A DNA stretch of 64,000 bases. Source: Candidatus Kryptoniota bacterium. Its GTDB lineage: Bacteria > Bacteroidota > Ignavibacteria > Kryptoniales > JAKASW01. Shown here piece after piece: positions 9,254 to 35,331 of the stretch. The stretch's first letter is position 1. Each line of letters opens with the position of its first letter. A program made the position numbers and the translations under genes. Below the pieces are notes generated by a model. The model worked only from the letters and a program-made list of their open reading frames with translations, searched no databases and was not told the DNA's origin. The stretch spans positions 26,131 to 90,130 of the forward strand of contig JBJKQU010000167.1 in assembly GCA_046705025.1 (NCBI GenBank), written 5' to 3'.

Positions 9254-9304
9254 TTACCTCCATTTAACAGGACAAGGATGTATTGTATTCATACAGCGGC
9301 CTTC

Positions 9305-10601: not shown

Positions 10602-10722
10602 AAGTAACCATCCGTATATATTGCATCGAGCAGAAGGGTGGATATGTCATACCCGAGCTATCATTCATAGGATACCCTCATTCCAGCCCACGGCTCACTG
10701 TGGCTAAATTCCATTTTCTCCA

Positions 10723-11832
10723 TCAAACCAAAAAGGGGAGTGTTGACAATTCCGCTTCGACTTCCTTTCCGCCGACTCTCACGTGATACCGCGACCCCGG
10801 GGCGACCTGCTGCATGGAGACGTAAGCGAGAGCAATATCCTTCCCCAGCCCGGGGGACCTGACCGAACTGGTAACGACCCCGATTTCAGCCTCCGCTCCC
10901 GCAGTCGATTTCACATCGTAAACCTTCGCGCCGTGCGGCATCTTCGAATCCGATACAAGCCCGACGAGGCGCCTCCTTACCTTTTCGTTGTTTCGCAGTA
11001 ACGCAATGACTTCCTGACCGACGTAGCACCCCTTCCTATTCCCAATCGCGTCCATAATGTTCACTTCGAGGGGGTTGAAGTTCTCGTTCAGCTCATGAGG
11101 ATAAAGCGGCGTGCCGTTCTCGATTCGCAGCACCTCAAACGTCTCGAGCCCTGCCGGCAGCGCTCCAACGGCCCTCGAGCTCTCAAGAAGTAGATCCCAT
11201 ACCGCCTCAGTATCATGGGGATTTACCAGAATAATGTAGCCGCCCCCCATGGCCATGTTAGTTCTGGCCAGAAGCACGTCTTTGGGACCTACGAAGGTAC
11301 GGATGAAATTGTGTATCGGCATTTTGCTTATATCGAGGAGCGTCCTATGACTCGAATGCGCGACGCTCTTCAGAAAAGCCGCCGCGGAACTCCCGGCCAC
11401 AAAGAACATCGGGAAGTTATGCGTCACATCCTCTACCTTCACGTCCTCCGATACTATGAACTTCTCGATCCATTTCTTCACATTCTCAGAGTTGCCGGGA
11501 CTGGTCTGCAGCAACAGCCCTCCCTGCTGAGCGTATACCGTGCAGAGGTCGATGATGCGCGCCTTCTCGGTCGTGAGAAAAGTCTGTCTTCCCATCCCCG
11601 GACGCATACCATTGAGATCGTTGGTCGAAATCCTGTGAAGGAAGTCCAGCGCGTCTTTTCCAGTCAATCTCAGTTTTCCGAAATGTGATACATCGAAGAA
11701 CGCCGCGTAGCGTCTTGCCGCTGAATACTCATCCTCAAGTGAAGTATATCTTTCAGGTATGGCTGTACCGTCTGCTTGAACCATCTGTGCACCCAATCTC
11801 TTGTGGAGATCAGTCAAAGTGCTTTCTGACAT
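10723..11832 (-). CDS. folate-binding YgfZ/GcvT-family (aminomethyltransferase-like) protein
   Basis: 369-aa ORF; GcvT-fold N-terminus (FFDVSHFGKLRLTGKDALDFLHRISTNDL) and the COG0354/YgfZ motif KGCYVGQE. Confidence 0.8.
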   Translation of the reverse strand: MSESTLTDLHKRLGAQMVQADGTAIPERYTSLEDEYSAARRYAAFFDVSHFGKLRLTGKDALDFLHRISTNDLNGMRPGMGRQTFLTTEKARIIDLCTVYAQQGGLLLQTSPGNSENVKKWIEKFIVSEDVKVEDVTHNFPMFFVAGSSAAAFLKSVAHSSHRTLLDISKMPIHNFIRTFVGPKDVLLARTNMAMGGGYIILVNPHDTEAVWDLLLESSRAVGALPAGLETFEVLRIENGTPLYPHELNENFNPLEVNIMDAIGNRKGCYVGQEVIALLRNNEKVRRRLVGLVSDSKMPHGAKVYDVKSTAGAEAEIGVVTSSVRSPGLGKDIALAYVSMQQVAPGSRYHVRVGGKEVEAELSTLPFLV

Positions 11833-12015
11833 CTCTAACTCCTCTGATTACAGATAAATATATAATCGCCTAATTTCCGAATCAATGAAACACACGAACA
11901 GACGGTCCCCCCGGGCTTCCGTGCTCCAGGAGTCAGTGAAACCTTTTGTGGGATTCTCCAACCGCCATGTCGTTTAATCCGGCATCTAGAGTAAGACGAC
12001 TCACCATCCCGGCAT

Positions 12016-12044
12016 GGCACAAAAAATCGTATCTCTTTTGTGCC
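12016..12044 (+). promoter_or_regulatory. perfect 9-bp inverted repeat GGCACAAAA-N11-TTTTGTGCC (candidate enhancer-binding-protein site)
   Basis: Read directly: arms at 12016-12024 and 12036-12044. Located about 40-70 bp upstream of the sigma-54-like element and about 120 bp upstream of the operon start. Confidence 0.35.
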
Positions 12045-12084
12045 CGGCACGTTACGCGGTCCGCCACCGGCATCGCCATCTTCA

Positions 12085-12099
12085 TGGCACAGAGGTTGT
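12085..12099 (+). promoter_or_regulatory. candidate sigma-54 (-24/-12) promoter TGGCAC-N5-TTGT
   Basis: TGGCACAGAGGTTGT has correct -24 TGGCAC and N5 spacing. The -12 element is TTGT instead of consensus TTGC. It lies 66 bp before the ATG at 12165, and a sigma-54 activator is encoded nearby. Confidence 0.35.
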
Positions 12100-12164: not shown

Positions 12165-12443
12165 ATGTTTACTTATGATCAAGTATTTTGGCTGAACGTA
12201 ACGAACCTTGTCCTTGGCTTGGTTACTCTTGCGTGCGTGCTGGTCATCGGTTATGCCGCGTTTAAAGAAATAAGAGAGCGATCAAGAGCGAAAGCTTCGG
12301 CAGCGGCAGCCGTGGACGACCATGCGTTTGTCGTCAACGGTCTCGGGGTCACGATGGCTGATGGCGGCGAGAAGGTGGACGATGACGAGATGCTGGTCGT
12401 CACCGAAGACGGAATCGAGAAATCCACCAGGAAACGGGGCTAA
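12165..12443 (+). CDS. small single-pass membrane protein with cytoplasmic ADGG-motif tail (operon gene 1)
   Basis: 92-aa ORF; one TM helix (VFWLNVTNLVLGLVTLACVLVIGYAAF) followed by a basic flank (KEIRERSRAK), then GLGVTMADGGEKVDDDE; AGAGAGG upstream of the ATG. Confidence 0.6.
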   Translation: MFTYDQVFWLNVTNLVLGLVTLACVLVIGYAAFKEIRERSRAKASAAAAVDDHAFVVNGLGVTMADGGEKVDDDEMLVVTEDGIEKSTRKRG

Positions 12444-12462
12444 ACGGGATGACCGCCAAGCC

Positions 12463-13470
12463 ATGGAGAACAGCAATGGGGAGATCGAAAGAGGATACGC
12501 CGTGAGATGCCCTTTCCTGAGAGAAGCCCAGGTGAAGTATTGCTGCGCGTCGGAATTCAAAAAAATGATTGTGCGCGGCCAGGGGGACGAAAACGCCGGG
12601 AGATGTTTTTCGCCGGACTACGTTTCCTGTCCCGCGGCAAAGCAGCATCATGAAGACATTCCAAGCCGATCTCATTGCCCTTTTCTTCAGGAATCTCTGG
12701 TCCAGTACTGTGCGGCAGCTTCCGTCTCGAAATATATACCTTACAGCTCGCCCAGTCTTTCAAGATGCGGGAACACCGACCACCGCTACTGCGAACTATT
12801 TCTCACCATGCAGAACCCTGCCCACCTTGCATCGCACGGTTTAAACGGGCCGGATGAGAAATCGGATGTCAGCGGTAGCGGCGCCTGGATAGTGGACGGA
12901 GTCCTTACAGCGGGATGGCTTTACTATTCCGGAAACCATATGTGGGCGGATATCGACAAGGAAGGCCACTGCCACATAGGGCTCGATGCGTTTTTCACAA
13001 GAATCATGGGCAATCTCGAGCGGCTCGCCTTCGTCGTGACTGCCGGAGAACGCCATCCGGCCGTGTCGGTAACCGTAAACGGAACGGAGCTGCAGATGAT
13101 CTTCCCGAACAGAATAACCGTCTCGTCCGTCAATTCGCATCTTCGTGCCGAACCGAACAGGGTGATTACTGACCCGTATACTTTCGGATGGCTGTTCGAG
13201 GGAACGATGCCAAAAGAGTCGCGGGCGGCCCGCAATGGAGAAGGAGAGGGGTTATTTCACGGCGAGAGCGTCCGCCGGTGGATGCAAAGCGAGACGAAAC
13301 GGATGACGGAGTTTGTACACAACAGGTTGGTGGCGACCGAAGATGACGGTCTTCGCTCTATGGCCGATGGCGGAATGTTCATCGAGCAACTCGCGAAACA
13401 CCTGACCAGGGAAGAGATCCTGCTTCTAAACAACGACTTCTTTTCAATTTGGCCAAGGCGGATAAGCTAG
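12463..13470 (+). CDS. cytoplasmic protein: two tandem 4-Cys modules plus GcvH-fold domain lacking the lipoyl lysine (operon gene 2)
   Basis: Start set at Met48 of the 382-aa ORF (the earlier part overlaps gene 1). Contains repeated CPFL[RQ]E..V.YC...C...C modules. Residues ~150-248 align to the GcvH core (NHMWADIDKEGHCHIGLDAFF ... DPYTFGWLFEG) and contain no Lys at the lipoylation position. Confidence 0.75.
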   Translation: MENSNGEIERGYAVRCPFLREAQVKYCCASEFKKMIVRGQGDENAGRCFSPDYVSCPAAKQHHEDIPSRSHCPFLQESLVQYCAAASVSKYIPYSSPSLSRCGNTDHRYCELFLTMQNPAHLASHGLNGPDEKSDVSGSGAWIVDGVLTAGWLYYSGNHMWADIDKEGHCHIGLDAFFTRIMGNLERLAFVVTAGERHPAVSVTVNGTELQMIFPNRITVSSVNSHLRAEPNRVITDPYTFGWLFEGTMPKESRAARNGEGEGLFHGESVRRWMQSETKRMTEFVHNRLVATEDDGLRSMADGGMFIEQLAKHLTREEILLLNNDFFSIWPRRIS

Positions 13471-13482: not shown

Positions 13483-14067
13483 ATGAAAAGCGGCTGGAAA
13501 CACTTCTACACAGGGATCGGTGCAGCTTTAGTTTTCGGGTGGCTGATATTCCCGCACATAATCTACAGGTCGGTCTACCAGCCGGTCCAGTTCAGCCATG
13601 TCGCCCACACAGGCGACAATGTCAGAATGACTTGCGGCGACTGCCATGCTTTTGAAAAGGATGGACGGTTTCTCGGGATACCGGCAACACAAAAGTGCGC
13701 CGGCTGTCACGCCGAAACAATGGGAGTCTCCAAAGAAGAAGAGCGGATAGTGGAAGAGTATATAAAGCCAGGAAAGGAAATCCCTTGGGTGGTATACTCG
13801 CGACAGCCGGAGAATGTCTACTTCTCTCACGCGACTCACGTGAAGCTCGCTGGCATCGAGTGTCAGAGCTGCCACTTCGGTCACGCATACACCCGAAATC
13901 TGAGACCTGCCCGGTTCGACCGTTTGAGCGGCTACAGCCTCGACGTGTTGGGTAAGAGTCTCTTCAATTCACCGTCGACACAGTCACGAGGGATGAGGAT
14001 GGACGATTGCGTCAACTGTCACCGGCAACGCGGCGTCAAAGAGAGCTGCATTGAGTGTCATAAGTAG
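13483..14067 (+). CDS. membrane-anchored pentahaem c-type cytochrome (ActA/QrcA-like)
   Basis: 194-aa ORF; N-terminal hydrophobic anchor; five CxxCH motifs (CGDCH, CAGCH, CQSCH, CVNCH, CIECH); class-III-like FSHxxH contexts. Confidence 0.9.
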   Translation: MKSGWKHFYTGIGAALVFGWLIFPHIIYRSVYQPVQFSHVAHTGDNVRMTCGDCHAFEKDGRFLGIPATQKCAGCHAETMGVSKEEERIVEEYIKPGKEIPWVVYSRQPENVYFSHATHVKLAGIECQSCHFGHAYTRNLRPARFDRLSGYSLDVLGKSLFNSPSTQSRGMRMDDCVNCHRQRGVKESCIECHK

Positions 14068-14076: not shown

Positions 14077-16296
14077 ATGGGAAATGGAATCACACGCCGC
14101 AGCTGGCTAAAGCTTGTCGGAGGATCGGCAGTCGGGCTTATGCTTACCCCAATCCCCTGGCGGGTGCTGGACGATTCGGCGAAGTGGACGCAGAGTCCCT
14201 CTTATCCGGGCAGCGCTTTCAGAGAGCCGATCGCCACAAGCGAACGCGAGAACTTCAGGTATACCACGTGCACACTATGCCCGATGTCGTGCGGCATCAG
14301 GGTGAGATGTATCGACAACCGACCTGTAGGCCTGTACGGAATTCCGAACCACCCGATCAGCGGGGGTGCCCTCTGCGCGATGGGTCTCGGCGCGCACCTT
14401 CTTCCGTTCCACCCATCGCGCCTCCTGCAGCCCTACAAGCGCTTTAAAGAGAGAGGCGAGTTCCGAACTGTCCCGTACTCGTTTGAAGGTGTGATGAAGG
14501 AAGTCTGCGAGGCAGTCTCCGCGGCTCGTGACAGTGGAGACGGCTTGGTCGCCGTTCTCGACATGTGTCCGGAAAGGTCTATTTCTTCCGTCTACAGGCA
14601 TTTTCTGGCTAGAATGCGGAACGGAGTCTACGTTAATCCTCCGTCCACGGAGGGATTGCCCCCGAATGCTGTCCGGAAAGGATTGGGGCATGACGAGTCT
14701 TTCGGCTTCGACGTCAGGAACACGCGGACAATCCTGAGTTTCGGAACGCCGGTTCTTGACGGCTGGGGAACACTTGAACAGTGTCGGGGTATCGCCGACA
14801 GGCGCGCCGGAAAGGGTGGCGAACGGTTGAAGATAATCCAGGTAGATCCTGTCCACTCCCGGACCGCGCGGCTTGCCGACGAATGGATACCCGACAGGCC
14901 GGGGACCGAGGCGGCTTTCGCGCTTGCGCTCGCGAATGTGATAATAAAGGAAGAGATGTGCGACATCAGGAGGCTGAATGAGATTTCCCGTGATTTCGAC
15001 GGTGCCTCCGGATGCTCGTTCATCGGCCTGGCAGAGAGATTCCCGGCCGAAGCCGTTTCCGGACAGACAGGCATTCAGGCCGACCGGATCGTCCAAACTG
15101 CAAGGGACATTGCCCGAAGGAAGCCTTCGGTGGTGATCTTCGGCGGCAATCCCGGCGCCGGCCCGTTCAGCGCCGAAGAGCAGACCATCTTCATGGACTT
15201 GAATATGCTTCTCGGCGCGGTCGGTACAAGAGGAGGACTGGTCAGACGGAACAGGCTGCCGGATCCGTTCGGCCAGAAAGCTGAACTCGCGCCCGCGATT
15301 CCTATAAGCGAGGTGCCGGACCATTCGGTCAGGGTCCTGATTATTGACGGCGCAGATTCGGGAGACGCGCTTCCCTGGCCTTTGCTGCGGCAGAAACTTT
15401 CGTCCGACCGCCCGGTTGTTGTAAGCCTTTCGCCACACCTCACGGAAATGGCGCGGCATGCCGATTACATCATTCCGGGTCCGACGAGCGTCGAGTCCAG
15501 CGACGACCGTGTGACTCCACCGGGTGCGGCTGCGGCGTCTTACGCCATTTGCAGTCCGCTCACTCCGGTTCCAAAGAAGGTCGTCGAGCCGCTCGATTTC
15601 CTGAAAGGGATCGCAACTTCATTGGGTTCAGACTTCGACAAGAATTTCAAGTCTGTCAATTTGTCCGCGCTCCTGAAGAACCGAATAGAAGTTATTTACC
15701 GACAGCAGCGAGGAATTGTGTTCGACGCAGCCGGCGCCGAGACAACAAGGCTCGCGTCGATCGGATCGCCCGACCGCTTGATGGATATTCTGTCGAATGG
15801 CGGATGCTGGGTTGACGATTCGGCGGGCGACCGTTACCCCCGGCAATATTCATTTCTCGGCGGGTCTCGTGAAAACTTCGGACGCCTGCTGGCAGCCGCG
15901 GGCAGAGACCGTGCCAGTTCTGAAACGGTACTAATCCCGCACGGCAGGAGGGGGGCACAGTCGAGCGGCCAAACACATCCCGAAATGACCAAGCTCTACC
16001 GCGAATCCGAGCTGCAAGAACCGGCAAACGTGGCTACAGTTAATCCGTCAAGCGGCAAGCATCTGAATTTGAATGACGGCGGCAAGGCAGTCCTCGAAAC
16101 TGAATCGGGTAAAGCCGAGGTCAAAGTCAGGTTCGATGCGGCGCTTCTGCCGGGAGTGGTGGAAGTATCCGTCGGACCCTCATCTGACGCTTTCGACCGC
16201 GCGGAAGCGTTCAGCGACAGAAGCATTCTGGAGATATGCAAAATAGAGAGCGATTCAACATGGCGAACAACAAAAGTGAAAATTACACCGGCGTAA
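14077..16296 (+). CDS. Tat-exported molybdopterin-oxidoreductase-family large subunit (ActB1/QrcB/PsrA-like)
   Basis: 739-aa ORF; twin-arginine leader (GITRRSWLKLVGG); FS0-type motif CTLCPMSCGIRVRC...GGALCAMG; MopB blocks (LKIIQVDPVHSRTARLADEWIPDRPGTEAAFALALANVII; C-terminal barrel ATVNPSSGKHLNLNDGGKAVLETESGKAEVKV). Confidence 0.9.
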   Translation: MGNGITRRSWLKLVGGSAVGLMLTPIPWRVLDDSAKWTQSPSYPGSAFREPIATSERENFRYTTCTLCPMSCGIRVRCIDNRPVGLYGIPNHPISGGALCAMGLGAHLLPFHPSRLLQPYKRFKERGEFRTVPYSFEGVMKEVCEAVSAARDSGDGLVAVLDMCPERSISSVYRHFLARMRNGVYVNPPSTEGLPPNAVRKGLGHDESFGFDVRNTRTILSFGTPVLDGWGTLEQCRGIADRRAGKGGERLKIIQVDPVHSRTARLADEWIPDRPGTEAAFALALANVIIKEEMCDIRRLNEISRDFDGASGCSFIGLAERFPAEAVSGQTGIQADRIVQTARDIARRKPSVVIFGGNPGAGPFSAEEQTIFMDLNMLLGAVGTRGGLVRRNRLPDPFGQKAELAPAIPISEVPDHSVRVLIIDGADSGDALPWPLLRQKLSSDRPVVVSLSPHLTEMARHADYIIPGPTSVESSDDRVTPPGAAAASYAICSPLTPVPKKVVEPLDFLKGIATSLGSDFDKNFKSVNLSALLKNRIEVIYRQQRGIVFDAAGAETTRLASIGSPDRLMDILSNGGCWVDDSAGDRYPRQYSFLGGSRENFGRLLAAAGRDRASSETVLIPHGRRGAQSSGQTHPEMTKLYRESELQEPANVATVNPSSGKHLNLNDGGKAVLETESGKAEVKVRFDAALLPGVVEVSVGPSSDAFDRAEAFSDRSILEICKIESDSTWRTTKVKITPA

Positions 16297-17072
16297 GTAA
16301 AGCCGGGCCGAAATACAAGAGGGCTATGTACGGAATGGTCATTGATATCGACCGATGCACCGGATGCGGCGCCTGCATGGTCGCCTGCGCGATTGAGAAT
16401 AACGTGCCTCCCGGCGCTCCCGCGTCGAATGAAAAAACGGGGATAACCCTACTGCGCATTGACGAGGCCGACAACGGGCTCCCTTTTCCCGACAGCAAAT
16501 CGGTCTTCTTTCCGATTTCATGTCAGCAATGCGAGCATCACACCCCGTGCGTGTCGGTTTGCCCGCAGAAGGCAGTCGAGCTCGATCCCGAAACCGGGAT
16601 TGTCGGACAGATACCTGCCAGGTGCCTCGGCTGCCGCTACTGCATGGTGGCCTGCCCATATCACGCGCGCTATTTCAACTGGCGTGACCCCGAATGGCCT
16701 GTCGGAATGGAACAGACTCTGAACCCGGACGTTTCGCCCCGGATGAGAGGGGTGGTAGAGAAATGCAACTTCTGCGCCCACCGCCTCCAGGCTGCCCGCG
16801 CAAAGGCGGCAATGCAGGGAAAGAGGGAGATAGATCCCGCGGACTACATTCCCGCATGCGTGGAGGCCTGCCCGACAAACGCGATGACGTTCGGAGACCT
16901 CCTCGATGAGGACTCGGAAGTGTACAGGATCTCAAAGGACAAGAACAGCTTCCGGCTGCTGGAGAATCTCGGCACCGCACCGAAAGTGTATTATCACTCG
17001 GAGCGCGAGTGGGTCAGGAAATTCGCTGAGAGTGAAGCCGCAGAAGGCAGGAAGAATGGAATTGGGAAATGA
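16260..17072 (+). CDS. 4x[4Fe-4S] ferredoxin-type subunit (PsrB/NrfC/ActB2/QrcC-like)
   Basis: Cys clusters CTGCGACMVAC, CQQCEHHTPCVSVCP, CLGCRYCMVACP, CNFCAHR..CVEACP. Start is ambiguous (ATG at 16236, 16260 or 16326); 16260 chosen, giving a 37-nt overlap with the preceding gene. Confidence 0.88.
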   Translation: MANNKSENYTGVSKAGPKYKRAMYGMVIDIDRCTGCGACMVACAIENNVPPGAPASNEKTGITLLRIDEADNGLPFPDSKSVFFPISCQQCEHHTPCVSVCPQKAVELDPETGIVGQIPARCLGCRYCMVACPYHARYFNWRDPEWPVGMEQTLNPDVSPRMRGVVEKCNFCAHRLQAARAKAAMQGKREIDPADYIPACVEACPTNAMTFGDLLDEDSEVYRISKDKNSFRLLENLGTAPKVYYHSEREWVRKFAESEAAEGRKNGIGK

Positions 17073-18343
17073 TGGAAAACGAAATGCTTGCACATACCAG
17101 GCGATGGTCTGCGGATAAACGCCTGATCGCCCGCGGAGTAAAACGGGCTTCCTTCGGGAAGTTCGCGGCTTGGATTGCCCCGTGGACTGCTCTCCTAATC
17201 TTCGGCCTTTACGCGATCTATCTTGTGCTCGCGAAGGGACTGAACCAGACGAACATGGACAACCGGTTCGCGTTCGGCTTATGGATATTTCTCGACCTGT
17301 CCGTCATAGCGCTGGGAGCCAGCGCATTCTTCACCGGTTTTCTCGTATATATTCTGAAGAAACACGAATTACGGGAGGTCATAAACAGCGCTGTCGTCCT
17401 CGGATTCATCTGCTACAGCGGAGCGATTCTCGTGCTGATGATCGACATCGGGCAGCCGCTCAGGGCATGGTTCACATTCTGGTATCCGAATGTCCACTCG
17501 ATGCTGACGGAGGTGACTTTTTGCATCACCTGCTACCTGACGGTGCTGGCAATCGAATACGCGCCGATGGTGCTCAAGAACAAGAAGCTGAAGGAAATCC
17601 CGTCGTTTCTCGTCTTTGAATTTGAGCTTCACAAAGTAATGCCGATACTCGCGGGCGTCGGTACATTCCTTTCTTTCTTTCACCAGGGATCGCTCGGCGG
17701 TCTGTACGGCGTCCTCCAGGGCCGCCCGTTCGCCTTCCGCGAAGGATTCGCGATATGGCCGACCACATTCTTCCTGTTCATCTTGTCCGCAGCCGCCGCG
17801 GGACCCAGCTTCGTTATGATAACCACGTGGCTCGTCTCGAAGCTGAGCAGGAAGCGGCTCGTCAGCGACAACGTTTACAGGCTCCTTGCGAAGATCTCGG
17901 GCACGATTCTGATATTCTACGTACTGCTGAAGTCGATCGATACGCTGACCTGGCTGAATCGAACTGCGCCCGAATTCGGGCTCTCCGGGATGAGTTTCTT
18001 CCTGTGGGCGCCGTTCAACGTGTGGATAATCTTTATTGAGATAGTCGTGTTCGGGCTCCTTCCGGCCCTGCTTCTCATAGCCGGCAGCAAGTCATTCGGG
18101 ACCGGCTGGCTCTTCATGTCGGCGGCTCTGGTGTGCTGCGGCATTCTCCTCAACCGGTTTGTCATGACCATACAAACTCTCGCTTTACCGACACTGCCGT
18201 TCGACAAGTTCATGCTATATTCGCCGAGCTGGCAGGAGGTGGCGGCGTTCCTGTTCGTAGTCGCATACGGGGTTCTTATATATTCCATCTCCTTCAGATA
18301 CCTTGGTCTCTTCCCCCAGGAACAGGAGCTCAACCAGAGATGA
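17069..18343 (+). CDS. NrfD/PsrC-family integral membrane quinone-interacting subunit (~10 TM, ActC/QrcD/DsrP size class)
   Basis: 424-aa ORF with about 10 hydrophobic helices counted by eye; 4-nt overlap with the FeS gene; follows the canonical MopB-FeS-NrfD order. Confidence 0.88.
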   Translation: MMENEMLAHTRRWSADKRLIARGVKRASFGKFAAWIAPWTALLIFGLYAIYLVLAKGLNQTNMDNRFAFGLWIFLDLSVIALGASAFFTGFLVYILKKHELREVINSAVVLGFICYSGAILVLMIDIGQPLRAWFTFWYPNVHSMLTEVTFCITCYLTVLAIEYAPMVLKNKKLKEIPSFLVFEFELHKVMPILAGVGTFLSFFHQGSLGGLYGVLQGRPFAFREGFAIWPTTFFLFILSAAAAGPSFVMITTWLVSKLSRKRLVSDNVYRLLAKISGTILIFYVLLKSIDTLTWLNRTAPEFGLSGMSFFLWAPFNVWIIFIEIVVFGLLPALLLIAGSKSFGTGWLFMSAALVCCGILLNRFVMTIQTLALPTLPFDKFMLYSPSWQEVAAFLFVVAYGVLIYSISFRYLGLFPQEQELNQR

Positions 18344-18453: not shown

Positions 18454-19281
18454 ATGTTTCCATGGGTTTACGGATTCACATGGCAGGCCGGCGACATAAT
18501 CTTTCTGACGATTTTCTACACTGTTGCTGGCGTCATCTTGATAACTCTCACGACAGCGGTACTTCGGGCGCTACGCGATCTCGAGTCGGGCCACGTCGAC
18601 GAGATAAAGTGGTATATCGACTTCAACGACCTTCCGGAACGGGGAAAGACCTGTCGTCATGTCTTCACTGGAGAGCTCGACAGGCGCACATGCAGGAACG
18701 GGTTCGACTGCCGAACCTGCAAACTGCATGCTGAGCTCACCGCGGCTGGGACTGCTTCAAAAGCCGGTGCAGCCGACGGCTCGCTATTCGGTCTGGATAT
18801 GCCTGCTGACCGCCTGTATCATCGCGGGCACACATGGGTGCACGTAGAACCTGATGGTACACTGATGGTCGGCCTCGACGAGTTCGGAAAGCACATAATC
18901 GGCAGGAGCACTCAAGCCGAGCTTCCCGGACCGGGGACAAAACTGACGGTCAACGGAACCGGCTGGTTCCTCAGAAGCGGCGATTTCAGAGCCCGTGTGC
19001 TTTCTCCCGTCAACGGTGAAGTTGTCTCGGTCGGCGGGATGGATGCGGGCTATTATCTCAGAGTGAAACCGGAAGGCAGTTCTGACTTGCGGCATCTGCT
19101 GAGAGGCGCGGAGATTCGACCGTGGATGACGAGAGAACTGGAGCGTCTTCAGGCCGCGCTAAGCGCAGATCGCACCGGAGTCAGCCTCGCGGACGGCGGC
19201 GAACTGGTAGACGATATGCCGGCGAATTACCCCGATGCGGACTGGGAGAATGTCATGGGTGAGATGTTCCTGGAGCCTTAG
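18454..19281 (+). CDS. single-pass membrane protein with 4-Cys module, GcvH-fold domain (lipoyl Lys replaced) and ADGG tail (operon gene 7)
   Basis: 275-aa ORF; TM helix (IIFLTIFYTVAGVILITLTTAVL) followed by RALR; Cys module CRHVFTGELDRRTCRNGFDCRTC. Gapless alignment to E. coli GcvH from HTW (HEW) to VNGEVVSV puts Asp where the lipoyl Lys sits. Tail contains GVSLADGGELVDD. Confidence 0.75.
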   Translation: MFPWVYGFTWQAGDIIFLTIFYTVAGVILITLTTAVLRALRDLESGHVDEIKWYIDFNDLPERGKTCRHVFTGELDRRTCRNGFDCRTCKLHAELTAAGTASKAGAADGSLFGLDMPADRLYHRGHTWVHVEPDGTLMVGLDEFGKHIIGRSTQAELPGPGTKLTVNGTGWFLRSGDFRARVLSPVNGEVVSVGGMDAGYYLRVKPEGSSDLRHLLRGAEIRPWMTRELERLQAALSADRTGVSLADGGELVDDMPANYPDADWENVMGEMFLEP

Positions 19282-19430
19282 CAGGCTGTTGACATACCCG
19301 CCTAAGTGCCCGCGAAAGACGCGAAAAGGCACGAATACAAAAGGTTTTTGCACGTTTAGTGTATTTCGTGGGCAAATACTTCCTCTTTTTCAACAGTCTA
19401 CTAAAAGCACGGCGACCGCCGCCGAATTTT

Positions 19431-19462: not shown

Positions 19463-20821
19463 TCACCTTTCTATTTCATACTTCTTGATCTTCTCGTAGA
19501 GAGTGGACCTGTCTATACCGAGCACCCACGCTGCTTCCTTTATATTGCCGTGAGTTCGTTTGATCGTGGCCCGTATCACTTCCTTCTCCACATCTTGAAG
19601 GGCCATGTTATCCGGCACGTTCCACGACTGCCTCCGTGACCCGTTCCCCTCCAGGAACCCGAAGTCTTCTTCAGTGAAGACCTTGTTTTTACAGGTAACC
19701 ATCGCCCGCTCAACCGCATTCTCCAGTTCTCTTACATTCCCGGACCAGTTGTAGTCCATCAGAAGCTTAAGTCCCGATTCAGTGATGTCGCATATATCTT
19801 TCCCCAGCTCGTGAGAGAGCCTTTCCGCAAAATACCTGGCCAACAACGGGATATCCTCTCTTCTTTCGCGGAGCGGTGGAATTTGAATGTTTATGACATT
19901 CAGACGGTAATAAAGATCATCGCGGAAAGTCCCGGCTTCTACCTCCTTGGCAAGGTCTCTGTTGGTTGCAGCGATGACGCGCACGTCGACGGTTATCTCC
20001 TCTGTTCCGCCGACCCTGTAAAAACTCCTTTCCTGGAGCACCCGAAGCAAATCCATCTGCAACTTGGGAGATATGTCGCCTATCTCATCGAGGAAAATCG
20101 TTCCGCCGTCCGCTAGCTCGAACTTCCCCTTCCTCTGAGAGACCGCCCCGGTGAACGAACCTTTTTCATGGCCGAACAGCTCCGATTCAAGAAGAGTCTC
20201 GGCCAGTGCCGCACACGAAACGCCGACGAACGGCTTCTGTCCGCGGTCGCCGGAGTAATGAATAGCCCTCGCAATGAGCTCCTTACCCGTTCCGCTTTCC
20301 CCTTGAATGAGGACAGTGCTTTTCAGACTCGATATATCCTGAACAAGCTGGAAGATTTCCTGCATCTTCGGATTCTTGCTGATGATATCGTGGAAGCTGT
20401 ATTGCTTCATAAGCCTCTGCCGCAGAATCAAGTTCTCGCGCTGGAGATTCTTCACCTTCATGATTCGCTCTACAAGGATCGAGATCTCCTTCGGATTGCA
20501 CGGCTTCACTATATATTCCTGTGCCCCCTCTTTCATCGCGAGTATCGCCGTGTCGACGGTGGCATAAGCGGTGATTATGATTATCGACGCGTCGGGATGG
20601 ATCTTCCTAATCTCCATCATCGTTTCGATCCCGTCTATGCCGCCCGGCATCTTCAAATCGACGAAGTAAATGGCATAGTCCTTCTCGTTCGATTTCTCGA
20701 TAGCTCCCTTTCCGGACGCAGCGGCATCAACGGCGTATCCGTCCTCCCGCAGCCACGCGACCAATGATTCCCTCATTATCTCTTCGTCGTCCACGACCAG
20801 AATTTCCCATTGAGTTTTCAT
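19463..20821 (-). CDS. sigma-54-dependent response regulator (NtrC family: REC + AAA+ + Fis-type HTH)
   Basis: 452-aa ORF; REC (ILVVDDEE...FVDLKMPG), Walker A GESGTGKE, GAFTGA variant GSFTGA, C-terminal HTH (AAWVLGIDRSTLYEKIKKY). Confidence 0.93.
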   Translation of the reverse strand: MKTQWEILVVDDEEIMRESLVAWLREDGYAVDAAASGKGAIEKSNEKDYAIYFVDLKMPGGIDGIETMMEIRKIHPDASIIIITAYATVDTAILAMKEGAQEYIVKPCNPKEISILVERIMKVKNLQRENLILRQRLMKQYSFHDIISKNPKMQEIFQLVQDISSLKSTVLIQGESGTGKELIARAIHYSGDRGQKPFVGVSCAALAETLLESELFGHEKGSFTGAVSQRKGKFELADGGTIFLDEIGDISPKLQMDLLRVLQERSFYRVGGTEEITVDVRVIAATNRDLAKEVEAGTFRDDLYYRLNVINIQIPPLRERREDIPLLARYFAERLSHELGKDICDITESGLKLLMDYNWSGNVRELENAVERAMVTCKNKVFTEEDFGFLEGNGSRRQSWNVPDNMALQDVEKEVIRATIKRTHGNIKEAAWVLGIDRSTLYEKIKKYEIER

Positions 20822-21483
20822 TTATGTAGCTCCACGACATTTTTGCTTTTCTTTGAATCTTTCTTCAGTAGTCTCAGGTTCTCTTCCAGCACGACCCAGC
20901 AGCTTTCACAGAAATTTTCCGACTTCACATCGATTTGCAGAATCTCCGTCGAAAGACACATCAGGCAAGACTTGTCGGTGCAATGTACCAGCCCGAACGT
21001 GTGGCCGAGTTCGTGAGACACCTCTTTCCTGATCCTCCTGACCGTAAGGTCCCTGTCGGGCGGGAGCCCGTAGAATTCCTGTTCGAGCCTTGCAAGCGAG
21101 ACAATGGCCACCTTGTTAATCCCGAAATCCGCGTCCTGAGGCATAGAGAGTTGCGCCTGCCCGTAAACGAAGGTCACCATCGGAATGAACAGGTCGACAT
21201 CGGTTATGGCCAGAAGCCGCTCCGCGCCGGGCGGGCTGTATGAATCGAGACGACGCAGTATCACGGTCGAGCTGTACTGACCGCGCTTGCCGTCGTACGC
21301 ATAGCCCGGGTCGGGCAGAAACGCCGCGGCCGCCGAAGCTTCGTCGACATGGTTTCCGCGTAAGGTGCCGGCCGCCGACGCCTCCAGTCCAAACATTTCT
21401 CTTACGTGCCGCGCGACCATGAGCAGGACCCCCTGGCTTACATGGCCAATTCCCAGAATCTGAACGACCGGATTCCCGCTCAA
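20818..21483 (-). CDS. archaemetzincin-type zinc metallopeptidase (peptidase M54)
   Basis: 221-aa ORF with the full archaemetzincin signature HELGHTFGLVHCTDKSCLM...CESC (HExxHxxGxxHC-x4-CxM-x16-CxxC). Apparent TTG start overlaps the kinase stop; ATGA overlap with the regulator start. Confidence 0.88.
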   Translation of the reverse strand: MSGNPVVQILGIGHVSQGVLLMVARHVREMFGLEASAAGTLRGNHVDEASAAAAFLPDPGYAYDGKRGQYSSTVILRRLDSYSPPGAERLLAITDVDLFIPMVTFVYGQAQLSMPQDADFGINKVAIVSLARLEQEFYGLPPDRDLTVRRIRKEVSHELGHTFGLVHCTDKSCLMCLSTEILQIDVKSENFCESCWVVLEENLRLLKKDSKKSKNVVELHK

Positions 21484-23105
21484 CTCTTCACCTCTCCGCC
21501 CGCAGCCGGAACCTGCCCCGGAGCCGTCGCACGCTCTATCGGAAGCGTCACTTTAAACGTAGTGCCCTCACCCGGTGCACTGCTGACTTCGATATCACCC
21601 CCGTGGGCGTCCACGATTCCGTATACGACCGACAGACCGAGACCTACGCCTTTCGATTCTCCTTTGGTAGTGAAAAACGGATCGAAGATCTTGGACATTA
21701 TCTCTTTTGAAATTCCGTCCCCGGTATCCGATATCTCCAGACTTATCGAGCCCTCTTCCCGCTTCGTGATAATTGAAACTTTGCCGCCCTCTTTGTTTTG
21801 ACACGCCTCCGCGCCGTTCATGACAAGGTTAATGATTACCTGTTGCATCTGTGAGCTGTCACACTCTATCCTCGGGAGGTCGTCGGTAAGGTGCAGGTCG
21901 AGCCCGACATTGCCGAGCTCCAGCCTGTGCCGCAGGATGAGCAGCGTGCTTCTTATCACCCCGTTGAGATCGACATTCGTGCTTTGAGGTTTTGAGCGTC
22001 TTGAGAAGGCAAGCAGGTCGGAGACAATTCTCCCTACACGGGTCGTCTCGTTTATTATTTGCGTCAAATACTTCTTGAAATCCGGAACCCGGTCCTGAGG
22101 TATCCCGTCGTCCTTGAGGATTCTGTCGAGGAGCATGGCAAGATTCAACACTCCGGAAATGGGATTATTGATTTCGTGCGCAACAGTCGCCGACAGCTGG
22201 CCCAGAGAAGCAAGCCTGTCGCTCTGAAGTATCTTCTTGTGCGCCAGCTCGAGCTCTCTAGTCCTTTCCTTTACCTTTATCTCCAGACTCTCTCTGGCCT
22301 GGTTAAGTTCCGCCATCGCCCGGTTTAGCCGCTCACTCATTAGATTGAACGCCTGGGCCAGCTGCTCCAATTCTCTGCTTGAGCTGATCTCGACGACGTT
22401 GCCCAGTTTCATCTGGCTGACGGCTCGCGTACCCTCTATCAACTTACGAATAGGTCTCCCCACAAACCTTCTGGTGAATAGCACGATAAACAGGCCGATG
22501 AAAAAGATTTGTATCCCTGTAACAACGTACACCTCGACCCTGGCGGCCTGCATTTCCTGATCGAGCGGCTTTAGGTCAAGAGCAACATCGAGAACTCCAA
22601 GCACGTTCGTCGTTCTCGGATGAGCGTGACAGCTCGCGTCGCTGCAAGAAGGCTCGTTATAGATGGGAGTTATCATCGCCAGCTGCCGGCTCCCCTGGAC
22701 TGTCCTTATGATCCGCGCGCGGGAAGAGGCGTCTATATTCACAAGCGGCTGGAATGATGAGTGACACATCGCGCAGGCTTCTGCTTTCTTGTTGACCAGC
22801 TTTTCGTCGTCGGGCTTTGTGGAAAACATCACCCGCCCTTCTTTGTTAAAAATCCTGATCCTGCTGATTCCCTGGTTCGCCGAGATAGTTCTCATTACCT
22901 CGTAAGCGGCGCTTCGATCGTCTGCCAGCATAGCGTGCCAAGTCGCGCTGGCTATACCCCGTGAGAGCTGGTCCGCACCGGTTATCATTGCCTGCAAGAT
23001 CTGTCTCTCTTGATTCTTCAAGCTGATATAGCTCGAAACCCCGGAGACGACGATCACGATTATCGTGAGAGACGTGACTATTTGCTGAGATAGTCTTTTG
23101 AACAT
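21480..23105 (-). CDS. sensor histidine kinase with periplasmic CxxCH-containing domain, HAMP, HisKA, HATPase
   Basis: 541-aa ORF; TM1 (res ~10-28), ~160-aa periplasmic region with CAMCH and CSDASCHAH, TM2 (~193-212), HAMP, H-box ATVAHEINNP, N/G boxes (NLVMNGAEA, GVGLGLSV). Confidence 0.9.
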   Translation of the reverse strand: MFKRLSQQIVTSLTIIVIVVSGVSSYISLKNQERQILQAMITGADQLSRGIASATWHAMLADDRSAAYEVMRTISANQGISRIRIFNKEGRVMFSTKPDDEKLVNKKAEACAMCHSSFQPLVNIDASSRARIIRTVQGSRQLAMITPIYNEPSCSDASCHAHPRTTNVLGVLDVALDLKPLDQEMQAARVEVYVVTGIQIFFIGLFIVLFTRRFVGRPIRKLIEGTRAVSQMKLGNVVEISSSRELEQLAQAFNLMSERLNRAMAELNQARESLEIKVKERTRELELAHKKILQSDRLASLGQLSATVAHEINNPISGVLNLAMLLDRILKDDGIPQDRVPDFKKYLTQIINETTRVGRIVSDLLAFSRRSKPQSTNVDLNGVIRSTLLILRHRLELGNVGLDLHLTDDLPRIECDSSQMQQVIINLVMNGAEACQNKEGGKVSIITKREEGSISLEISDTGDGISKEIMSKIFDPFFTTKGESKGVGLGLSVVYGIVDAHGGDIEVSSAPGEGTTFKVTLPIERATAPGQVPAAGGEVKS

Positions 23106-24258: not shown

Positions 24259-25341
24259 TCAATGCCGGCCCACGGAAATCTCGTCTCCGGTCGCGGACTG
24301 CCTTTCGAACGTGACGAGCTCGGTCATCTCGGGAACAAGCGGCTTCTTCTCGAAATAATTGAATCTCCTCGTCGACCTGTTAGGGAGATACACTTTTCCG
24401 ATAATCTTGTAGTTCGCTTCCGCAAACATTCGCTGAACTTCAAAAGGATAATCTGCAACCCCTGCTTCTCCGATTTCCTGCGCTACGATGATCGAGACTC
24501 TCCCCCCGGTCTTCAATATCCTGTTGGCTTCTCTGAAGACGGTCTTGAACTTCATCTTGAAGTTTGAAAGGGCTACAGACAGATCCTCCGTTCCCGAATA
24601 GAATTCGTCCGGCAGATCAACGAAAAGGTAATTGACGGAATCTGATTCGACAGGGACACCTGTAAGGAAGACATTGTTCTGCTTTATCCGGTCGTCGGAG
24701 GGTTCATTGTCGAGGAGTTGGTAACGCCGGTCACCGAAATAGGCTATCTTGTCGACGACGTCTCCGAGTGTGCCGCTGCCGGCAAAGGGATCGACGATGA
24801 ATGCGCCATGATCGGTGTAGTGATAGATGGCGTTTGCGACGATCTGACCGGCGATTCGTCCTTTGTAGCCGGGCTTTCCGAAGCGCGGGTCCGGCACATC
24901 GAAATTCCAGACGTTCGAGTTGCGGAGGTCAAAGCCGAACTTAGTCCGCTCCGCTTCACGCTCCGTCAGCACATCTTCGCGAATCTTCTTCCTCAGCTCG
25001 GCTATCGTCCACTTGTTCTGAATCGCTTCCTTCTCGTAGTCTTTTCGCCTTTCCTCGTCGCCGATCTTTGTCGCCAGCTCAAAATAGAAGCTCTCGGGAA
25101 GCTTCCGTCTTTTCAGGTCCGGATAGTAGGTGAAGTACATCTGGCATTGTTTGAGGAGGCTCGGTTGAAACTTGAAACCGGGATACGAGGTAAGGACTCT
25201 ATATAGCTCCTCCTCTGATAACTTGTTTGACTTCGCGTACGGCAGGACCTTTTCGACGATAAACCTGCCGACATCCCAGAAGCTGTCGACGGACAGAGAG
25301 TTCAATCTCTCGGCTAGCTTTTGCAGTGGATCAGTTTTCAT
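24259..25341 (-). CDS. atypical SAM-dependent amino-methyltransferase-like protein (orphan)
   Basis: Motif I region SNVWNF...[35 protein letters not shown] resembles N4/N6 DNA methylases. The motif IV position reads FVDLPDEFY rather than (D/N/S)PP(Y/F). Start set at ATG 25339-25341, forming an ATGA overlap with the upstream stop. Confidence 0.55.
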
Positions 25342-25760
25342 TTTGACTCCGAGTTGATTCCTTTGTGTTCCTTTGCCCAATTTCGAACATAAGCGACTAT
25401 ATCTGAAGTCAACGTGCCCGGCGTAAACAGTTCACCCACACCCATTTCTTTCAAAGCATTGATGTCTTTATCGGGGATTATGCCGCCGCCGAAAAGCAGG
25501 ACGTCGCCGAGTCCCTTTTCCTTCATGAGGCCCAGAACCTTAGGGAAGATTGTCATGTGGGCGCCGCTCAGAAGGCTGATTCCGATTACATCCGCATCTT
25601 CCTGGAGCGCCGCTTCTACGATCATTTCAGGGGTCTGCCGTAAGCCGGTATAGATGACTTCCATACCCGCATCTCTCAAGGCGGCCGCAACTACTTTGGC
25701 TCCTCTGTCATGACCGTCGAGTCCTGCCTTCGCGACCAGGATGCGAATCTTCCTTTCCAT
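25338..25760 (-). CDS. stand-alone cobalamin (B12)-binding domain protein (methylmalonyl-CoA-mutase small-subunit-like)
   Basis: 140-aa ORF; [34 protein letters not shown] contains the DxHxxG base-off/His-on motif (DGHDRG); GISLLSGAH and GGGIIP blocks. Confidence 0.88.
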
Positions 25761-30078: not shown

Positions 30079-31365
30079 ATGTTAAAATTAACCGCGGTTT
30101 CAATTAACCATAGAACCGCAAACGTTGAAGCACGCGAAAAGATATACTACAATTCCGAAGAAATCCGGGAAATCTCCGAGAAGATAAAAGAGGTAGCCCG
30201 CGAGTCGCTGATCGTATCGACCTGCAATCGAACAGAACTGTACTTGATGCCTTCGGCCGCACCGAAGACACACGACAGCTTGTATGGTCTTATTCGCGAG
30301 GGAAAAAGGCTGCGCGACGGAGAACTGCAGGTTCAGTATGAAACCTTCGAGGGTTTCGAAGCAATAAGGCACTTATTCTCGGTGGCCACCGGGGCAGACT
30401 CACTCATGCTCGGCGATATTCAGGTGCTCGGACAGGTGAAGGAGGCTTACAATACGGGCGTCGAACTGGGAATGGTCGGCACCGTGCTGCACCATGCCTG
30501 CCAGATTGCTCTCAAGGTTGGAAAACGGGCTAAGGCGGACACGAGGATTTCCGAAGGCGCGGTCTCGGTGAGTTATGCCGCTGTCGAGCTCGCCGAGAAA
30601 ATATTCGGCAACCTCAAGGGCAAAACCGCGATGCTCATCGGTGCAGGAGAGACTGCTGAGCTGGCAGCGAAGGACCTGAAGCCGAAGGAGATCGCCCGGC
30701 TGTTTGTGGCGAACCGGACCCTGGAGCGGGCTCAAAATCTGATCGAACAGATCGGCATGGGGGAAGCGATCCCGCTGGATCAGATGGGCCAGAAGATTCC
30801 TCAGACGGATATCGTCATCTCCAGTGTCGGCGGGTCCGATTATATCTTGACGCGTGACACTGTCGCGCCTGCGATGAAAGGCCGGGAGTCGAAACCGTTG
30901 CTCATCATAGACATTGGAGTGCCGCGCAACGTAGATCCTGCCGTCAAGAAAGTAGCCGGCGTCTTCCTTAACGATATCGATTCTCTCAATCTGATCGTTC
31001 AGAAAAACATGGAAATGAGGCGGTCCGAGATACCGGCGGTTAGACGGATCATCGATGATGAATTGAATGAGTTTATACGGTGGTACAATTCGCTCGAGCT
31101 CGGGCCGACGATAAAAATGCTGCGCGACAAGGTGGAACGCATCAGAGTCGAGGAGGTCAAGCGGCACAAGAACAAGATGAACGGGTCCGATACCGAGATC
31201 GTCGAGGAGATAACACGCGCCCTCGTGAACAAGATACTCCACGAACCTCTCACTAATTTGAAGAACTTAGAAAACGGCACTTCGCTCGTCGACAGGGTGA
31301 AGCTGATGAAATCGCTCTTCGGGCTGTCCGAAGAGTCAACCGGGAAGAAGAATGAAGAAGATTAG
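30079..31365 (+). CDS. hemA: glutamyl-tRNA reductase
   Basis: 428-aa ORF; SINHRTANVEAREK, catalytic STCNRTELY and NADPH-domain GAGETAE motifs. Confidence 0.95.
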   Translation: MLKLTAVSINHRTANVEAREKIYYNSEEIREISEKIKEVARESLIVSTCNRTELYLMPSAAPKTHDSLYGLIREGKRLRDGELQVQYETFEGFEAIRHLFSVATGADSLMLGDIQVLGQVKEAYNTGVELGMVGTVLHHACQIALKVGKRAKADTRISEGAVSVSYAAVELAEKIFGNLKGKTAMLIGAGETAELAAKDLKPKEIARLFVANRTLERAQNLIEQIGMGEAIPLDQMGQKIPQTDIVISSVGGSDYILTRDTVAPAMKGRESKPLLIIDIGVPRNVDPAVKKVAGVFLNDIDSLNLIVQKNMEMRRSEIPAVRRIIDDELNEFIRWYNSLELGPTIKMLRDKVERIRVEEVKRHKNKMNGSDTEIVEEITRALVNKILHEPLTNLKNLENGTSLVDRVKLMKSLFGLSEESTGKKNEED

Positions 31366-32293
31366 AGTCGGAACCAGAGGGAGTCAGCTTGCCCTCTACC
31401 AGGCAAATCTGGTTGCCGATTTCCTTCGCAGCAGCTCAAATGGCATTGAAATAGAGGTCAAGACCATAAAGACGACCGGTGATAAGATCCTCGACTCCCC
31501 ACTCTCGAAGATCGGCGACAAAGGGCTGTTCACAAAAGAAATTGAAAAGGCGCTTCTCGAAAGAGAGATAGATTGTGCGGTTCACAGCCTGAAGGATTTG
31601 CCTACCCAGCTTCCTGCCGGACTGGAAATAATTGCCTGCGGAAGACGAGAGGACGTGAGAGACGCGTTGATAGCCCAGGACGGGATGAAGCTTCTCGAAC
31701 TTCCGAAGGGAGCCACGGTGGCGACCGGAAGCCTCAGGCGCCGTTCGCAGCTTCTCCATATGAGAAGCGATCTCAACCTGGCAGAGATGCGCGGCAACCT
31801 GAACACGCGTCTGCGAAAGCTCAAAGAGGAAGGCTATGCAGGGATGATGCTCGCATATGCCGGGATAAAGCGTCTTGGAATGGCTGATAAGGCCACCGAA
31901 ATCCTGGAACCGGACAGGATGCTTCCGGCTGTTGGTCAAGGGATCATCGCAGTCGAGGCTCGCGCAGATGACTCGCAATTGAAGGAGATGCTTTCCGGCT
32001 TCAACAGCAAGGATTCAGAGACGGCAGCACTTGCCGAGCGGGCATTCCTGAGGCTCCTCGAAGGAGGATGCCAGGTGCCGATCGGTGTGCATACGTCTTT
32101 AGAAAACAAGCGCCTGACCGGCATGGTTGCCTCGCTTGACGGCGAGACTCTCATCAAAGACTCCGTCCCATTCGATGAACAAGACCCGGACCGGACGGGA
32201 ACGGAGCTGGGGCGGAGGCTCCTTTCTCTGGGGGCGGATAAGATACTGGATGAAATAAAAGCCGCGTCTGATCCACGGAATTCATCGGACTGA
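31352..32293 (+). CDS. hemC: hydroxymethylbilane synthase (porphobilinogen deaminase)
   Basis: 313-aa ORF; IRVGTRGSQLALYQA, HSLKDLPT, GNLNTRLRKL, GGCQVPIG motifs. Confidence 0.95.
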   Translation: MKKIRVGTRGSQLALYQANLVADFLRSSSNGIEIEVKTIKTTGDKILDSPLSKIGDKGLFTKEIEKALLEREIDCAVHSLKDLPTQLPAGLEIIACGRREDVRDALIAQDGMKLLELPKGATVATGSLRRRSQLLHMRSDLNLAEMRGNLNTRLRKLKEEGYAGMMLAYAGIKRLGMADKATEILEPDRMLPAVGQGIIAVEARADDSQLKEMLSGFNSKDSETAALAERAFLRLLEGGCQVPIGVHTSLENKRLTGMVASLDGETLIKDSVPFDEQDPDRTGTELGRRLLSLGADKILDEIKAASDPRNSSD

Positions 32294-32323
32294 GCCTCCG
32301 ATGAGAAAGACGTTCGGATCAAT

Positions 32324-35304: not shown

Positions 35305-35331
35305 CGTACTAGATCAGAGACATTTGTAGAA

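Follow-up and report, generated by a model that had tools for sequence, protein, structure and literature searches.

Our analyses of a 64,000-nucleotide stretch of DNA from Candidatus Kryptoniota bacterium (assembly GCA_046705025.1, contig JBJKQU010000167.1, positions 26,131 to 90,130 of the forward strand; hereafter the window, in the numbering of which its features are given) point to an ancient, co-inherited three-component signalling operon, in which the gene of a predicted cytoplasmic protease of the archaemetzincin family (peptidase M54) lies between those of a sensor histidine kinase and a sigma-54-dependent response regulator. We propose that this cytoplasmic metzincin represents an undescribed type of accessory for two-component systems, encoded by a context-defined clade of a known protease family. 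An earlier note on the same DNA had already suspected that the arrangement was new, and in the literature searched by full text, which cannot prove absence, we found no description either of a kinase, metzincin and regulator operon or of a cytoplasmic metzincin in such an accessory role.

The operon and its archaemetzincin

The three genes follow one another on the minus strand in the order kinase, protease, regulator, their open reading frames (ORFs) lying exactly where the earlier note had placed them: the kinase of 541 amino acids (aa) at 21480..23105, the archaemetzincin (221 aa, with a TTG start) at 20818..21483, and the regulator (452 aa) at 19463..20821, the identities of the first and the last being supported by Pfam. 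The overlaps between the genes were read directly from the sequence. At the junction of kinase and protease, which is GGCGGAGAGGTGAAGAGTTGAGCGGG on the minus strand, the kinase stop codon TGA (21482-21480) overlaps the protease start codon TTG (21483-21481) in a TTGA (21480..21483), with a GGAGAGG Shine-Dalgarno sequence upstream of the start; in the alignment, this TTG is the sole start codon before the conserved N-terminal strand VQILGIGHV of the protease. At the junction of protease and regulator (GTGGAGCTACATAAATGAAAACT on the minus strand), the TGA of the former and the ATG of the latter form an ATGA (20818..20821), and GGAG stands 9 nt upstream of the ATG. A terminator scan placed a terminator-like hairpin with a T-rich tail at 19410..19424 of the minus strand, 3' of the regulator gene, and found no terminator-like site on that strand between the three genes. 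With its two 4-nt overlaps and uninterrupted by such sites, the trio looks like a single translationally coupled unit, as had been proposed, and the arrangement is beyond chance because its order and its 4-nt overlaps are found again in dozens of unrelated genomes.

The assignment of the middle gene to the archaemetzincins, also advanced in the earlier note, is one on which Pfam, NCBIfam, structural templates and Foldseek agree. The Pfam profile Peptidase_M54 (PF07998) matches the protein with 74.8 bits (E 1.2e-20; cut-off 24.4), while the NCBIfam archaemetzincin model NF033823 matches it over nearly the full length with 138.5 bits (E 2e-40), narrowly under the cut-off of 145. The window protein carries two lineage-specific loops, at about residues 40-55 and 113-123, and six of the seven tested homologues without them score 151-168 on the same model, with P0099 at 143.5. 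The match to the structure of Methanopyrus kandleri AmzA (2x7m; E 4.6e-26) shows no gaps across the metal-binding region. A structure model of the protease made with AlphaFold2 (AF2; pLDDT 84.9, pTM 0.85) has archaemetzincin-type structures as its five best Foldseek matches in the PDB, namely 2x7m, two chains of 3zvs, 4axq and the related peptidase 3lmc (E 1e-14 to 6e-11, target TM-score 0.77-0.81), the next being fragilysin and adamalysins. On these grounds we regard the product of the middle gene as a genuine M54 peptidase.

The protease signature, HELGHTFGLVHCTDKSCLM-x16-CESC, spans residues 157-195. It comprises the zinc site H157-E-L-G-H161-T-F-G164-L-V-H167, with the catalytic residues H157, E158, H161 and H167, the Met-turn M175, and a Cys4 site formed by C168, C173, C192 and C195. 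In an alignment of 35 relatives, H157, E158, H161, G164, H167, C168, C173, M175, C192 and C195 are invariant; the complete motif HExxHxxGxxHCx4CxMx16CxxC occurs in 81 of 84 protease copies, and its 16-residue Cys spacing is common to these 81 relatives and, in an ungapped alignment, to 2x7m. The intact signature predicts a zinc-dependent protease, and conservation of the catalytic site suggests that catalysis matters. No signal peptide or membrane segment was predicted in the window protease, residues 7-31 forming a confident core strand and helix in the AF2 model; since the N-terminus belongs to the core and is not a signal peptide, the protease is predicted to be cytoplasmic.

In its fold and motif, and as a single domain of some 180-220 aa, the protein thus resembles the AmzA proteins of M. 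kandleri (2x7m) and Archaeoglobus fulgidus (3zvs, 4axq). It differs from them in its two extra loops, with a score just under the NCBIfam cut-off, and above all in its setting, the clade to which it belongs being bacterial and nearly always placed in a kinase/sigma-54 operon, whereas archaeal and archaeal-like copies stand alone.

Conservation of the arrangement among bacteria

Relatives of the protease were collected by a narrow pattern scan with one genome per species, which returned at least 398 of them, and the best 80 loci, harbouring 83 protease copies, were analysed. The carriers among these best 80 loci are almost all bacterial, and their record labels include Acidobacteriota, Bacteroidota, Ignavibacteriae, Thermodesulfobacteriota/Deltaproteobacteria, Gemmatimonadota, Krumholzibacteriia, WOR-3 and Cloacimonadota, among others. 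Ignavibacterium album, Paludibaculum and Bryobacteraceae, and Desulfococcaceae are lineages in which a cultivable carrier might be sought. The former description of archaemetzincins as mostly archaeal and vertebrate is therefore out of date for a family that now comprises 6977 clusters at 50% identity, and bacterial members have already been listed (PMC4681839).

The order kinase, protease, regulator, on which the earlier note had staked its case, proved to be conserved in 54 of the 83 copies. In 20 others the order is kinase, regulator, protease (hereafter tail-type), and three more are other regulator-first variants, so that the protease directly follows the regulator in 23 copies in all. 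One copy is interrupted by a contig end; in two loci (L029 and L046) the protease gene heads the same larger cluster, in front of an operon of DGG-motif and NrfC/NrfD-type genes described below; and three copies (L036, L063 and L073, from a Zixibacteria metagenome-assembled genome (MAG), an unclassified MAG and a Bathyarchaeia MAG) occur singly, each in an unrelated setting. Across both gene orders, the protease gene adjoins the regulator gene in 78 of the 83 copies, and the kinase gene in 56. Among the 54 loci with the protease in the middle, a 4-nt overlap between protease stop and regulator start is present in 33, and a candidate protease start at -4 relative to the kinase stop in about 31.

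Because the first sample had been selected by the protease itself, a second was drawn through a metagenome scan with the periplasmic sensor of the kinase only, represented by closer sequences, which provided 57 loci long enough to judge. The protease lies directly 3' of the kinase in 48 of them. In nine, kinase and regulator are adjacent, four of these certainly lacking a protease in the 2.8-5 kb downstream of the kinase and five being undecided, and the word "obligately", which the earlier note had attached to co-translation, was consequently too strong. The pairs without a protease indicate that it is not essential for basic signalling, or else that it is encoded elsewhere in those genomes. 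At one of them (L089) the neighbourhood is filled by unrelated genes, and the protease-less loci look like cases of secondary loss or relocation. Between the regulator and a GcvH-like gene, L089, a close relative, carries (at 9049-11028) a YhcH-like gene and the gene of a membrane protein which, by reading of its sequence only, appeared to resemble PP2C/SpoIIE-type phosphatases.

In a neighbour-joining tree, all the linked proteases fall into one clade, apart from the stand-alone copies, and the two gene orders correspond to coherent subclades within the protease tree. Two loci (L013, 27-5086, and L023, 1748-8818) contain two complete systems in head-to-tail array, in which both gene orders are represented once, and each system has its own protease from a different subclade; the retention of separate proteases in tandem systems suggests cognate specificity. 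Taken together, the comparisons indicate that the linkage of kinase, protease and regulator is ancient, specific and under selection, being frequent and not strictly obligate.

The signalling pair and the convergent Qrc-type operon

The kinase consists of a periplasmic domain between two transmembrane segments, followed by the HAMP, HisKA and HATPase_c domains recognised by Pfam. Two motifs stand out in its periplasmic part, CAMCH (residues 111-115) and CSDASCH (residues 154-160); among 63 orthologous kinases (that of the window and 62 from the loci, L003-L164), CxxCH occurs in 62 and Cx4CH in every one, and C111, C114, H115, C154, C159 and H160 are invariant in the kinase alignment. CxxCH and Cx4CH are the two haem-attaching motif types of cytochromes c3. 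The kinase is thus probably a dihaem c-type periplasmic sensor of redox state. Its residues 1-215 (22461-23105) show a weak Pfam likeness to the Mcp40H-20 sensor family (24.5 bits, under the cut-off).

The regulator comprises a receiver domain (REC), a long helical linker of the NtrC1/DctD kind, an AAA+ domain with GSFTGA and a Fis-type helix-turn-helix (HTH), the corresponding Pfam matches being Response_reg, Sigma54_activat (242 bits), AAA_lid_14 and HTH_8. AtoC and ZraR are its best NCBIfam models, both under the cut-off. The pair resembles the NtrC-family systems AtoSC and ZraSR in joining a HAMP-HisKA-HATPase kinase to a REC-AAA+-HTH activator, with an adjacent operon and promoter candidates of the -24/-12 type. 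It departs from AtoS/AtoC and ZraS/ZraR in scoring far under their cut-offs and in a sensor with two haem c attachment motifs, and from NtrC-family systems in general in the cytoplasmic metzincin encoded between, or directly after, pairs of the window type.

Convergent with the module, on the plus strand, lies what we assign as a Qrc-type menaquinone reductase operon. It begins with a small ORF of 92 aa (12165..12443), read from the sequence as one transmembrane helix followed by a cytoplasmic GLGVTMADGGEKVDD motif, and continues with a Cys-rich GcvH-like protein with an SMADGG motif (12466..13470; Pfam GCV_H, 22.7 bits), a QrcA-type multihaem cytochrome c (13483..14067; NF041781, 197 bits, cut-off 180), a QrcB-like molybdopterin-family subunit with a twin-arginine signal (14077..16296; Pfam and NF041783, 266.6 bits, cut-off 440), a QrcC-like 4Fe-4S subunit (16236..17072; NF041782, 356.7 bits, cut-off 400), the NrfD-family membrane quinone-site subunit QrcD (17069..18343; NF041784, 576.8 bits, cut-off 570) and a membrane-anchored GcvH-like protein with an LADGG motif and a conserved tail (18454..19281; Pfam GCV_H, 35.2 bits). 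The four-subunit gene order is that of QrcABCD of sulfate reducers, and the QrcA and QrcD proteins score over the equivalog cut-offs, while QrcB and QrcC score under them. Further differences from QrcABCD are the three additional DGG-motif genes (for the small membrane protein and the two GcvH-like proteins), the coupling to a haem-sensor, protease and sigma-54 module, and the occurrence of related modules with NrfC/NrfD-type pairs that lack QrcA or QrcB. The published study of the Desulfovibrio sigma-54 regulome makes no mention of Qrc, of peptidases or of the genes of the module.

The small ORF falls below the 100-aa listing cut-off and overlaps, in another frame, a mechanically called ORF of 382 aa (12322-13470), the real start of which is probably the Met at 12466. 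A Pfam search of the 92-aa protein returned zero matches. Orthologues with LG(I/L)TMADGG were found in seven other loci (L021, L029, L046, L076, L110, L113 and L118), and the orthologous small genes, known from at least these seven, are always the first gene after a sigma-54-type promoter. Neither of the two GcvH-like proteins has the lipoyl lysine, and both share with the small protein the DGG motif, here (L/M)ADGG, which the positive-inside rule places in the cytoplasm. This motif had been taken for an "ADGG tail" in the earlier note; it is internal, leaves no C-terminal GG, and is followed by a conserved tail of about 30 residues (W...FL), only D-G-G being invariant among 25 full-length orthologues and 43 paralogues. 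The idea of a C-terminal GG that would await cleavage, as in ubiquitin-like proteins, was accordingly rejected, the motif being internal, the tail conserved and positive evidence of cleavage absent. Also rejected, as a probable coincidence, was mimicry of the motif by the pre-Walker-B segment ELADGGTIFLDEI of the regulator (about residues 233-246, containing ELADGG), which had been likened to the (L/M)ADGGE..(V)DD of the three operon proteins: the Asp and the first Gly of the regulator vary even in protease-linked systems, and segments of the ELADGGTIFLDEI type are a general feature of this activator family.

DGG-motif/GcvH-like genes and an NrfC-like/NrfD-like pair, with or without QrcA and QrcB, travel with the module in about 54 of the 80 loci, in convergent, divergent or co-directional layouts. 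The DGG-motif GcvH-like genes number one to three per locus, and the DGG genes of the window three if the small ORF is included. As a family, the GcvH-like proteins (68 homologues, L008-L083) are either anchored in the membrane or Cys-rich at the N-terminus, where CPFLxE..V.YC is repeated; all of them have the DGG motif and the conserved tail, and they always occur with NrfC/NrfD-type or Qrc-type genes.

A sigma-54-like promoter candidate, TGGCACAGAGGTTGT, is located at 12085..12099 on the plus strand, at a distance of 80 nt before the small DGG gene. It reads TGGCAC-N5-TTGT and is hence imperfect, its -12 element being TTGT and not TTGC. In relatives, consensus or near-consensus TGGCAC-N5-TTGC precedes the GcvH-like/NrfCD operon in L054, L056, L071, L072, L074, L029 and L046 (perfectly in L056, L072 and L046), being intergenic in layouts with the operon behind the regulator gene, with repeated GTTGAA...CAAC sites upstream of these elements, and GGCA(C/T)-N5-TTTG(C/T/A) occurs in the last 15-85 nt or so before the orthologous small gene in L110, L113, L118, L021 and L076, at measured positions of -74 and -77 in L110 and L113 as compared with -80 in the window. 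A scan of the whole window for sigma-54 promoters gave counts not above chance, and the 12085 site takes its weight from its position and its conservation across species only. Since sigma-54-type promoters precede the Qrc operon or its relatives, this operon is a plausible target of the module, in line with the earlier note's suggestion of the convergent redox operon, and a dihaem periplasmic sensor would fit the regulation of a complex fed by periplasmic cytochromes; the kinase and regulator probably control the adjacent Qrc/DGG operon.

Other features were observed around the promoter candidate. A perfect 9-bp inverted repeat, GGCACAAAA-N11-TTTTGTGCC (12016-12045, plus strand), precedes the sigma-54-like element by about 40 nt, at a place where relatives have GGAAATTCC-type and GTTGAA...CAAC repeats instead. 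A TGTGGGATTCTCCAAC element near 11920-11950, which precedes the promoter candidate by about 140 nt, resembles the repeats of the relatives.

Elsewhere in the window, a run of haem-biosynthesis genes occupies 30079-41610 on the plus strand and ends with genes for ferrochelatase, protoporphyrinogen oxidase, ALAD, an epimerase, HemL and a SIMPL protein. In the relatives L002 and L003 (1-5768) this run is immediately upstream of the kinase and co-directional with it, whereas some 11 kb separate the two in the window, where the run is on the opposite strand, with intervening genes that include a DNA methyltransferase-like one at 24259-25380, which implies a local rearrangement.

Possible roles of the protease

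In the literature searched we found no established physiological substrate for archaemetzincins. A paper on Thi4/DUF6775 that names archaemetzincin deals solely with a likeness in structure, in an archaeal protein that is unrelated. The activities reported are generic, namely aminopeptidase activity or casein degradation (PMC3427221, PMC4681839), while archaeal AmzA proteins are inactive on generic substrates and have occluded clefts, which their authors read as a sign of triggered, specific activity (PMC3427221). The closest precedent, missed in the earlier note, is CarG of Myxococcus xanthus, an archaemetzincin-like protein with two zinc ions and the only bacterial protein of this fold with an established role, which lies in the control of transcription. 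The carG gene is translationally coupled to carD, and the two proteins form a tight complex that acts as one regulatory unit (PMC8156234, section 7.4; PMC3427221, introduction), CarG having lost the catalytic Glu (HQxxH) and having no protease activity (PMC8156234, PMC3427221). The coupling to a transcription-factor gene is the likeness to the window, where the protease gene is joined to that of the sigma-54 regulator by the ATGA. The differences are considerable, as CarD is an HMGA-like protein that binds RNA polymerase and acts with extracytoplasmic function (ECF) sigma factors, and CarG is restricted to myxobacteria, whereas the clade of the window protease has an invariant catalytic Glu, a sigma-54 regulator as partner gene, and a distribution over many phyla. 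The partner gene in the window does not belong to the CarD family, as judged from the Pfam matches of the neighbours, and the window protease, with the motif HELGH and its Glu, scores 95 bits on the CarG model NF033824, the cut-off of which is 250; by these comparisons it does not qualify as a CarG orthologue.

The reading that we favour, at a probability of about 0.4, is that the protease acts on or with the regulator, and does so catalytically. A membrane kinase with two periplasmic c-type haem attachment motifs is paired with a sigma-54 activator of the NtrC1/AtoC type, and their transcript very probably also yields the cytoplasmic archaemetzincin, with translational coupling to the kinase on its upstream side and to the regulator on its downstream side. 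The regulator is preferred as the partner because it is the one neighbour kept through both gene orders. The protease would be devoted to the sigma-54 regulator of its own system, which it would bind, as CarG binds CarD, and, its active site being conserved, would also cleave. In activators of the NtrC1/DctD class the receiver domain inhibits the ATPase, so that cleavage in the linker would cut off an inhibitory domain and lock the activator on irreversibly; alternatively, the protease may destroy the activator and thereby reset the response. With either outcome, an irreversible proteolytic layer would be added to phosphorylation in controlling the expression of a respiratory complex, a reading akin to the proteolytic control of the pathway that the earlier note had suggested. 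A more elaborate version, which we regard as quite doubtful, would make the protease a true third component, whose occluded cleft opens upon a signal (for example phosphorylation of the regulator, or a redox state that the dihaem kinase detects) and which then cuts its cognate activator in the linker between receiver and AAA+ domains, so that a reversible switch by phosphorylation would become an irreversible commitment to the expression of a respiratory complex.

Several points weigh against the assignment of the regulator as substrate. The proposal draws purely on gene order and on the analogy with CarG, and adjacency to the regulator could reflect operon history instead of physical contact; in L029 and L046 the protease is far from the regulator, and at least four of the 57 orthologous kinase-regulator pairs have no protease nearby. 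A comparison of the regulators of protease-less and protease-linked systems revealed no distinguishing feature. The analogy itself has limits, since CarG is not specifically related to the linked clade: the stand-alone copies outscore the linked ones on the CarG model, for which reason a descent of CarG from that clade was rejected. Lastly, the apparent fusion proteins of protease and regulator (P0040), kinase and protease (P0128, P0256) and regulator and protease (P0191), which had been considered as evidence of interaction, are probable frameshift artefacts. The source contigs of P0040 and P0128, L002 (ERZ25039473) and L165 (ERZ25039492), are ridden with frameshifts and contain many split genes, and in P0128, P0191 and P0256 the junction or interior sequences read as out-of-frame, L002 and L165 being the two contigs that were checked. 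False fusions made by frameshifts (P0040 and P0128) are thus present in public protein collections.

Four other roles were weighed against this one. The protease might process or degrade the cytoplasmic DGG-motif proteins, in maturation or feedback of the Qrc-type complex, and leave the signalling proteins alone. DGG-motif GcvH-like genes accompany the module in the majority of loci, with three DGG genes in the window, their motif is invariant and predicted to share the compartment of the protease, and in L029 and L046 the protease gene stands directly before the DGG operon. However, the gene that adjoins the protease in 78 of 83 copies is the regulator and not a DGG gene, the conserved tail that follows the motif seems to be part of the structure and not a propeptide to be removed, and L089 has kept its DGG protein with no protease nearby, all of which leaves this role rather unlikely. 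The peptidase could instead be aimed at the kinase, for instance by clipping its cytoplasmic transmitter to end or alter signalling, as might be expected from the commonest layout, in which the protease directly follows the kinase with overlapping stop and start codons (54 of 83 copies). In the 20 tail-type loci and the three other regulator-first copies, however, the regulator separates the two, and we consider a role on the kinase improbable.

The remaining two explanations dispense with a specific cleavage. A non-catalytic, zinc-bound adaptor of the CarG kind would stabilise or tune the sigma-54 activator, or else the contact that this activator makes with RNA polymerase, with the protease site idle on the pathway; it would have a model in CarG itself, which is archaemetzincin-like, non-proteolytic, part of a transcription-factor complex and encoded by a gene coupled to that of its partner (PMC8156234), and would agree with the inactivity of archaeal AmzA proteins in vitro (PMC3427221). 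Whereas CarG has HQxxH, E158 and the zinc ligands are invariant here and the full signature is kept in 81 of 84 copies, which argues for selection on catalysis, and the score on the CarG model is far under its cut-off (95 against 250 bits); an idle site therefore seems distinctly unlikely. A mere passenger, that is, a general cytoplasmic peptidase that rides in the operon with no role specific to the pathway, would be in keeping with the stand-alone archaemetzincins found in unrelated contexts, the orthologous two-component pairs that do without one, and the generic activities reported for the family (PMC3427221, PMC4681839). Such a peptidase would hardly be expected, though, to remain linked in no fewer than eight phyla, whatever the gene order (at least two are known) and in three layouts of the operon, to form a single clade where linked, and to be kept as a separate copy by each of the tandem systems of L013 and L023, and we hold this explanation, too, to be very unlikely.

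Archaemetzincins extend from archaea to humans, with solved structures and a conserved active site, and the linkage described here provides the first concrete candidates for partners of the family, a handful of proteins whose genes lie within a few kilobases, by which the question of the substrate becomes directly testable. It also ties a new kind of accessory to what is probably a redox sensor with haem in the periplasm, and to the control of a Qrc-type quinone reductase, in phyla well beyond the classical sulfate reducers. If the regulator were indeed cut in its linker, the archaemetzincins would have their first physiological substrate, and CarG might then be seen as a degenerate remnant of a shared habit of binding transcription factors.

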